A DNA stretch of 64,000 nucleotides from positions 1,792,001 to 1,856,000 of the forward strand of contig OZ242351.1 of NCBI GenBank assembly GCA_965208675.1, read 5' to 3'. The notes under the pieces are model-generated. The model was not told the origin of the DNA and made no database searches. It was given only the letters and a program-made list of their open reading frames with translations. Origin of the DNA: Candidatus Poribacteria bacterium (GTDB lineage Bacteria > Poribacteria > WGA-4E > PCPOR2b). How positions within the stretch are numbered: the first letter of the stretch is position 1; the number at the start of each line of letters is the position of its first letter. Both the position numbers and the translations under genes were made by a program. Shown here one piece after another: positions 11,270-12,466 of this stretch.

Positions 11270-12466
11270 TTAATCCGCAGCAGTTGCTAATTCCGGGGCG
11301 GCCGTATCCGTCTCACAGAAGGCAACGTAATCCGAAATGAGCTCAGTAATTTCTGGATTCTCGCTGCAGATCGGACAGTTCTCGTCCCGATTGACCTTCA
11401 ATTCTCGAAATTGCATGCTGAGCGCATCATAAAGCAGTAAACGGCCGATGAGTGGATCGCCCGTTCCGAGCAGAAGTTTTACGGCTTCGGTCGCCATCAC
11501 GACGCCAACGACGCCTGGGAGCACGCCCAGGACACCTGCTTCACTTCAGCTTGGAACCATGCCGGGCGGCGGCGGTGCCGGAAACATGCAGCGATAGCAA
11601 GGCCCGTCATGCGGCTTCAGGACGGTCGCCTGTCCCTCAAATTGGAAGATACTCCCGTGTACAACGGTTTTATCCGCCAATACCGCCGCATCATTAACAA
11701 GATAGCGTGTTGCGAAATTGTCGCACCCGTCGACAATCAAATCATAGTCTTGAATAATCTCCATGACGTTGTCTGATTCGAGGCGGACGTGGTACGGAAC
11801 CACCTCAGTGTCAGGGTTCAAGGCTTTGATTGTTGTCGTGGCGGATTGTACCTTTGGAGTGCCAACCGCTTCAGATCGGTGGAGAATCTGGCGTTGGAGG
11901 TTACTGAGTTCTACCGCATCGGAATCGACGATGCCAAGTGTGCCAACACCGGCAGCCGCGAGGTAAATTCCAGCCGGCGATCCCAATCCGCCTGCGCCTA
12001 TAAACACGACTTTTGAATCAAACAGCTTTGCTTGCCCTTTCTCCCCGATTTCGCGCAGCATAAAGTGGCGGCTGTAACGGTCTAACTGGTCCGAGGTCAT
12101 GGATTTTTCTTTGACCGTCGGGTATCCGCTGCTCGTCCACGCCCGATATCCGCCAGCCATGGAGACAGCGTCCGTGTACCCCATGCCTTTAAGGGATTTT
12201 GCGGCAAGCAATGACCTAACTCCGCCTGCGCAATAGACGACAATCTTTTCATCCCGATCGGGCACATAGTCCTCAATATCAAGCTCAAGCATCCCACGGC
12301 TCACATACAGCGCATCGGGGATATAGCCCGATCGATACTCGTCGTTATCGCGGACATCAAGCAAGACAAAGGAATCTCGATTATCCTTCTTCGCCTTGAC
12401 CTCATCAACGCTGACTTCTGAAATTTCCTGCTTTGTTTCTTCGATGATTTCCCTGTACGATTTCAT
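11270..12466 (-). CDS. moeB: Rhodanese-MoeB/ThiF adenylyltransferase fusion with in-frame UGA (11546-11548), probable selenocysteine; 398 aa with readthrough
   Basis: Rhodanese [56 protein letters not shown] continues in frame to CPIC; joins ORFs 11546..12466 and 11270..11524. Confidence 0.85.
11510..11536 (-). promoter_or_regulatory. Putative bacterial SECIS hairpin downstream of the moeB UGA
   Basis: mRNA +10..+36 after UGA: GGUG-U-CCUGGG/CGUGCU/CCCAGG-CGUC; 6-bp Watson-Crick upper stem, bulged U, lower stem with G-U pairs, GU near the start of the apical loop. Confidence 0.7.

Follow-up and report, generated by a model that had tools for sequence, protein, structure and literature searches.

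The window analysed here is a stretch of 64,000 nucleotides (nt), contig positions 1792001-1856000, from the genome of a Candidatus Poribacteria bacterium, which consists of one contig of 4.89 Mb. We conclude, with a probability of roughly 0.93, that positions 11270-12466 of the window hold a single intact selenoprotein gene encoding a protein of the rhodanese-MoeB type, that the UGA at codon 307 is decoded as selenocysteine (Sec) and that the product is a probable activator of sulfur carriers of the ThiS/MoaD type. An earlier reading made without database searches (the sequence-only reading) had proposed a Sec-containing, E1-like activator of sulfur carriers with an N-terminal Cys rhodanese. 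The sequence observation behind that proposal is confirmed, the Sec-containing E1-like reading of the gene is supported, and none of the refutation tests that were run overturned it; the actual insertion of Sec is what we infer from the evidence below.

The gene, its UGA codon and the encoded protein

When TGA is translated as U, the gene is a single frame on the minus strand, from an ATG at 12466 to a TAA at 11270-11272. Codon 307 is the sole in-frame TGA and lies in the context [31 protein letters not shown] / [29 protein letters not shown]. A plain list of open reading frames (ORFs) cuts the gene into a piece of 306 residues (11546-12466) and a spurious, GTG-started frame of 84 residues (11270-11524). 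That the two fragments belong to one frame, as first described, was recovered on retranslation, with 398 codons, one TGA and exactly the context that had been given.

The encoded protein consists of an N-terminal rhodanese domain followed by a ThiF/MoeB adenylation domain (Table 1). The rhodanese loop CAGGVR contains a putative persulfide residue, Cys79 (codon 12230-12232), the equivalent of which is retained in all six relatives inspected. In the adenylation domain are a nucleotide loop, GAGGLG, and a pair of CxxC motifs, CYRC (C290/C293; 11588-11599) and CPIC (C364/C367; 11366-11377); the C-terminal CPIC had been described as intact, which it is, as is CYRC. A GAGGLG loop, two CxxC motifs and a rhodanese active-site Cys are the defining motifs of the rhodanese-MoeB type. 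The protein matches the family model NF006444 (PRK08762, MoeB) from end to end, scoring 551.2 bits against a cut-off of 449 and covering profile positions 4-385 of 387, and by its score, its full span of the profile and its ThiF and rhodanese motifs it is a member of this family.

Two other assignments were considered and rejected. The MoeZ model (NF005902) gives 401.8 bits against a cut-off of 647, the ThiF part alone (residues 121-389) matching and the rhodanese being N-terminal. The protein is likewise not of the Uba4/MOCS3 type, since the domain order is reversed although the catalytic column aligns; it may nonetheless operate in the manner of Uba4.

Structures with the ThiF fold are matched at 8.4e-57 (Escherichia coli MoeB, 1jw9) and 2.4e-54 (ThiF, 1zud and 1zfn). 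The alignment with MoeB spans residues 124-368 and includes both CxxC motifs, and U307 is aligned with the Cys of the xCxEAGV motif both there and in Chaetomium Uba4 (6yub). The UGA had been said to sit exactly on the conserved Cys of the E1-like loop, and its alignment with the crossover-loop Cys of MoeB and Uba4 places it there. In the trapped Uba4-Urm1 complexes 6yuc and 6z6s the same column is Lys (C202K, by the depositors' sequence). Uba4 C202 is described as the Cys of the crossover loop, which becomes joined to Urm1 by a thioester before the persulfide of the rhodanese attacks (PMC7527816).

A near-consensus promoter had also been noted upstream of the gene. As a sequence match it stands, with 11 of 12 consensus positions at 12653-12625, and as a promoter it is putative; the region holds six promoter-like sites, compared with a mean of 1.8 in shuffles.

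Table 1 Features of the selenoprotein gene and its surroundings, in window positions.
Feature	Positions	Strand	Description
Complete selenoprotein coding sequence	11270..12466	minus	398 codons (one UGA = Sec) and TAA stop at 11270-11272
UGA codon 307, read as Sec	11546..11548	minus	Crossover-loop Cys site of E1-like adenylyltransferases
SECIS-like hairpin	11510..11536	minus	GGUG-U-CCUGGG-CGUGCU-CCCAGG-CGUC, -10.4 kcal/mol
Rhodanese domain, residues 20-112	12131..12409	minus	PF00581, 1.5e-18
ThiF/MoeB adenylation domain, residues 131-365	11372..12076	minus	PF00899, 5.7e-83
Sigma-70-like promoter match (putative)	12625..12653	minus	TTGACT-17-TATAAT, 11/12 consensus, ~160 nt upstream of ATG

Conservation of the UGA codon and the downstream hairpin

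The TGA had been expected to persist in close relatives if the proposal was correct, and it does. Sixty-one genomes of the same order, from four families and 15 genera, were surveyed; 58 of them carry a full-length orthologue (64-98% identity) that is interrupted by a single TGA and by no further stop, and the remaining three comprise one with a contig-end fragment that contains the TGA and two in which a paralogue is the sole match. In a survey of the phylum (176 Poribacteria genomes, with E <= 1e-130 as the threshold for an orthologue), 153 genomes have the orthologue, and among the matches listed all 150 contain one TGA and no other stop. The 153 genomes all fall in four families of one order (27/28, 109/112, 9/11 and 7/7 genomes, together with the window's own), and no orthologue at E <= 1e-130 was found in the 17 genomes from the other seven families of the phylum. 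The TGA is at the identical column in each of the 30 orthologous loci that were retrieved.

Alternation of TGA with Cys codons, another check that had been suggested, is evident in the 80 best public loci, where the Sec column is TGA in 42, TGC in 24 and TGT in 14. The 42 TGA loci comprise 26 that group with Poribacteria (two of them titled otherwise) and 16 others, titled Nitrospinota, Tectomicrobia/Entotheonella, 'Proteobacteria' and 'Deltaproteobacteria'. The loci with a Cys codon are mostly titled Binatia and 'Deltaproteobacteria', the Cys orthologues there being 56-60% identical. A Cys-containing paralogue of about 268 residues, without a rhodanese domain, is present in 60 of the 61 genomes of the order, and in 30 genomes its codon at the Sec column is TGT (19) or TGC (11).

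A quick maximum-likelihood tree (IQ-TREE) was constructed from 85 rows, the Sec/Cys column having been replaced by X. A single branch separates all 43 Sec rows from all 38 Cys orthologues, with a weak SH-aLRT value of 79 for the Sec side; one switch between the two residues therefore suffices, albeit with weak support. Two of the public contigs group away from their titles, apparently through binning or labelling errors: one titled as a Klebsiella pneumoniae metagenome-assembled genome (L152) is placed inside the Binatia-type Cys forms, and one titled Cytophagia (L106) inside the Poribacteria, beside L084.

A single in-frame stop has the look of a fresh nonsense mutation, or of an error in a single genome, and the gene could on that basis be a pseudogene, or its TGA a sequencing or assembly error for TGC or TGT. 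However, the TGA recurs in independent assemblies (the 58 of 61 and the 150 of 150 listed), down to 64% protein identity and without any other stop, and Sec forms occur in other phyla too. Reads showing TGC or TGT had been named as grounds for abandoning the proposal. Contigs from four runs, each of a different study and one probably the source, contain no alternative letter at 11546-11548, although they differ at many positions elsewhere in the gene. The probability of a pseudogene or an error is thereby reduced to a practically negligible level, and the gene is best regarded as intact.

The hairpin that had been reported downstream of the UGA, with a bulged U and an early GU in its loop, was found as described. 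It starts 10 nt after the UGA and has a lower stem of 4 bp (11533-11536 with 11510-11513), a bulged U at 11532, an upper stem of 6 bp (11526-11531 with 11514-11519) and an apical loop, CGUGCU (11520-11525), with GU at loop positions 2-3. If numbering starts at the U of the UGA, the bulged U falls at +17, which we take to match the fdhF element. The resemblance to a bacterial selenocysteine insertion sequence (SECIS) extends to every constraint of the bSECISearch model as quoted in PMC13188914: a loop of 3-9 nt (6 nt in the window), an upper stem of 4-16 bp (6 bp), a G in the first two loop positions (position 2, then U), a spacing of 16-37 nt (20 nt) and a minimum free energy (MFE) of -7.5 kcal/mol or lower (-10.4 kcal/mol).

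The synonymous sites of the hairpin codons are frozen. Among 30 distinct Poribacteria Sec orthologues, the third positions of hairpin codons 5-9 (V-L-G-V-L) have an entropy of 0-0.21 bits, the codons being GTC in 29/30 and CTG, GGC, GTG and CTC in 30/30 each, and the Pro codon in the hairpin is CCA or CCG only, which preserves a U-A or U-G pair. Third-position entropy is 0.99-1.75 bits at codons 2-4 of the same gene and 0.92-1.75 bits at the counterparts of the hairpin codons in the Cys paralogue of these 30 genomes. Every Sec form has the complete upper stem of 6 bp, both in Poribacteria (30/30) and in the other phyla (16/16; 46/46 overall); among Cys forms it is present in 7 of 38 orthologues and in none of 30 paralogues. 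Two registers of the hairpin occur, A with a 6-nt loop and B with the 3' arm shifted by one base and a 7-nt loop. All 30 Poribacteria Sec forms use A, while those of other phyla use A in 3 cases and B in 13, the 7-nt loop being the usual one in Tectomicrobia and Nitrospinota. The closing pair of register B, formed by two synonymous third positions, is variously C-G, G-C and A-U; with three cells, and 51 of 500 shuffles reaching as much, this is a hint and not significant.

A further observation concerns the same stretch. Very short pieces of metagenome contigs (31-60 nt) pile up over it (window 11511-11551), and in two runs the depth of the bin 11510-11549 is 361-498, compared with 5-19 in the flanks. 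Such a pile-up is expected if the frozen stretch is common, word for word, to many Poribacteria strains in one sponge.

The sequence-only reading had also foreseen that annotation pipelines would split the gene, and in public protein collections 15 of the best 120 clusters are proteins of 306 residues, among them P0002, which ends ...GMVPS. These calls, and the GTG-started frame of 84 residues, would equally be expected if UGA 307 mostly terminated translation, giving a product of 306 residues (a rhodanese and a partial ThiF domain), possibly with a separately started C-terminal piece, in which case the split would be genuine; moreover, Sec insertion in bacteria competes with termination. The break, however, sits on a codon that is Cys in 38 of the 80 homologous loci, and the 91 downstream codons are in frame and conserved in 153 genomes. 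A product of 306 residues would break off before the second CxxC and before the ThiF domain is complete, and the frozen synonymous sites would be needless for a simple stop. Termination as the main outcome is accordingly very improbable. With the codon read as Sec, the enzyme is likely to be called as a truncated protein of 306 residues in at least 153 genomes of the phylum, and in the Sec forms elsewhere. Pathway reconstructions of uncultured sponge symbionts may, as a result of such calls, miss or mis-score one of two E1-like activators.

Several points stand against this reading of the gene. The related genomes are kin, so that the counts given above overstate the independence of the observations. 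The fold energy of an 81-nt stretch is unexceptional (z = 0.14, 109 of 200 shuffles folding as well), and an Rfam scan of 11200-12600 at E up to 10 returned no family. RNAalifold, run on the 46 Sec forms, gave a different, weak consensus (-2.04 kcal/mol) in place of the hairpin, likely because the two registers are mixed in the alignment. In the Poribacteria register no pair is changed on both sides, a result that all 500 shuffles match or better, and compensatory change is thus essentially absent. Mean energy over +7..+45 is -12.7 kcal/mol for Sec forms and -9.1 kcal/mol for the Poribacteria paralogues, but among the GC-rich phyla of the wide set it does not separate Sec from Cys orthologues (-16.8 and -15.3 kcal/mol), and energy was therefore dropped as evidence. 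The peptide LG..LPG itself encodes CUNGG/CCNGG pairing, which is why some Cys forms fold too. The gene neighbourhood gives no pointer to a carrier or a pathway. Finally, none of the sequencing runs listed as carrying the gene is an RNA run.

What lifts the hairpin above chance is that relatives conserve both the TGA and the hairpin codons; fold energy by itself does not. The hairpin overlies an invariant peptide, GVLGVLPG, that already favours pairing, and the full stem in 7 of the 38 Cys forms is attributed to chance. With such a pairing-prone motif in place, few further changes could have sufficed to turn a Cys codon here into UGA.

Selenocysteine machinery, candidate carriers and neighbouring genes

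Absence of Sec machinery would have told against the proposal, and the genome encodes all of it. The genes selA (595.6 bits) and selB (367.5 bits, profile positions 1-580 of 581) and the tRNA-Sec (77.5 bits) all score above the curated cut-offs and are tightly clustered on the minus strand at genome positions 2131409-2134883, beyond the window; ARAGORN likewise predicts a tRNA-SeC with anticodon TCA. A selD of the Sec type is also present (375.8 bits, above cut-off) and holds one in-frame TGA, giving U17 in KCAGUASK near the N-terminus. This gene (genome positions 4649539-4650462, minus strand, outside the window) is therefore a selenoprotein gene too, and the MFE fold of the 60 nt from its UGA is without a clear hairpin.

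The UGA might instead be read as another residue, namely Cys or Trp through a near-cognate tRNA, or by reassignment of the codon. Homologues have Cys at this site, and the identity of the inserted residue comes from sequence, both of which leave room for such readthrough. TGA, however, closes 13 of the 37 stop-to-stop frames of at least 250 codons in the window (one being the gene's own 306-codon piece), which argues that it is not reassigned genome-wide and is an ordinary stop elsewhere. Together with the complete selA-selB-tRNA-Sec cluster, the Sec-type selD and a conserved hairpin at SECIS distance, this makes insertion of another residue extremely improbable, and Sec the preferred assignment for codon 307.

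In the mechanism that we propose, the hairpin would recruit SelB carrying Sec-tRNA(Sec), so that Sec is inserted at codon 307 and an enzyme of 398 residues is made. The enzyme would adenylate the C-terminal Gly of a ThiS/MoaD-type sulfur carrier. Sec307, in place of the crossover-loop Cys, would then attack the acyl-adenylate, forming a selenoester as in the Uba4 scheme, or would resolve an acyl-persulfide, and the persulfide on Cys79 of the rhodanese would donate the sulfur that yields the carrier thiocarboxylate. The SelB-dependent insertion, the covalent seleno-intermediate, the carrier served and the part played by Cys79 are all predictions of this scheme.

The equivalent Cys is reportedly dispensable in E. 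coli MoeB, whereas that of ThiF is reported to enter an acyl-disulfide with ThiS. What the crossover-loop Cys does in bacterial enzymes of the MoeB/ThiF type differs between systems, and natural Sec/Cys pairs offer a comparison. The stable retention of costly Sec at this site across the clade is an argument for a catalytic importance of the residue in enzymes fused to a rhodanese. We tentatively suggest, at somewhat less than even odds, that Sec307 is the catalytic nucleophile and forms a covalent acyl-selenoester or acyl-S-Se adduct with a ThiS/MoaD-type carrier, which would make this the first E1-like enzyme to use selenium chemistry. Nothing supports the bolder variant, in which selenium rather than sulfur is loaded onto the carrier. 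If Sec307 does act in this way, part of the sulfur-carrier metabolism of the symbionts (molybdenum cofactor (Moco), thiamin or CysO-type cysteine synthesis) would depend on the supply of selenium, and a selenium-E1 lineage would be fixed throughout an entire order of sponge-symbiont Poribacteria and common to Nitrospinota and Tectomicrobia.

The genome contains four genes for ThiS-family carriers and two E1-like activators, so that several carriers probably depend on the Sec enzyme. In order of genome position the carrier genes are at 24890, 369488, 2351231 and 3053355. The four are found beside moaE, beside an oxidase of the DAO/ThiO type, beside PALP and PAPS-reductase genes, and beside a Moco-binding dehydrogenase. 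The one with the PALP and PAPS-reductase neighbours (genome positions 24890-25150) directly follows a PALP enzyme fragment and the PAPS-reductase gene, a CysO-like arrangement, and one or other of the E1-like enzymes may activate its product. A weak match to the ThiG family (22.3 bits; genome positions 1148271-1148507) lies in an open frame of 285 codons with one TGA, and may represent another TGA-containing gene or chance.

The Sec gene is surrounded by genes for an ABC permease, a BamB/PQQ-like propeller, a Bat/VWA operon and a CotH protein. The Cys paralogue has TsaD, Sua5 and Lpx genes as neighbours, and these likewise provide no link to a carrier or a pathway. The operon (window 2957-10015, minus strand) resembles Bat-type aerotolerance operons and encodes BatD, a TPR protein, two VWA proteins (one with a BatA N-terminus) and a DUF58 protein; within it is an ORF of 344 residues (7918-8952) with no Pfam match. 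The CotH kinase-like protein (829 residues; 14165-16654, minus strand) also has a lamin-tail domain. Further along, a small ORF with a Fic/DOC domain (20391-20828, minus strand) adjoins a gene for an FRG and TPR protein of 622 residues.

Comparison with known systems

The suggestion that Sec-MoeB might already be described in other taxa proved correct. A Sec-containing 'molybdopterin biosynthesis MoeB protein' family with a predicted bacterial SECIS has been catalogued since 2005, on the basis of 11 sequences from the Sargasso Sea (Zhang, Fomenko and Gladyshev 2005, PMC1088965). The GOS survey of 2008 counted 19 Sec and 2,262 Cys forms of MoeB (PMC2398784), and the family also appears in the reviews PMC9312934 and PMC13188914. 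Like the window gene, the published family is of the E1-like MoeB/ThiF type (COG0476 / PF00899), with a UGA paired with Cys homologues and a predicted bacterial SECIS; this likeness is drawn from the text and tables of those sources, and not from domain order or the Sec column. The passages on Sec-MoeB in these sources make no mention of Poribacteria, of a mechanism or of the crossover loop. Literature searches, with supplements outside their scope, brought up neither a biochemical study of Sec-MoeB nor, judged by title and abstract, a paper on the Poribacteria gene. The gene is therefore a new, clade-wide member of a selenoprotein family that was already catalogued, and its novelty is modest.

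The closest Cys counterparts are the proteins of NF006444, which have the same order of rhodanese then ThiF; the window gene differs from them by the UGA at the crossover-loop Cys and by the SECIS hairpin. E. coli MoeB and ThiF have the ThiF fold in common with it, but lack a rhodanese domain and have Cys instead of Sec. Uba4/MOCS3 (6yub, 6yuc and 6z6s) likewise combines adenylation and rhodanese domains in one chain, with an aligned catalytic column. In Uba4, which is eukaryotic and serves Urm1, the rhodanese is C-terminal and the residue is Cys, whereas in the window protein the rhodanese is N-terminal and the residue is Sec. To the known Sec-MoeB family the Poribacteria gene adds SECIS evidence in the form of frozen synonymous sites, and it puts Sec at the position occupied in Uba4 by the thioester-forming Cys.

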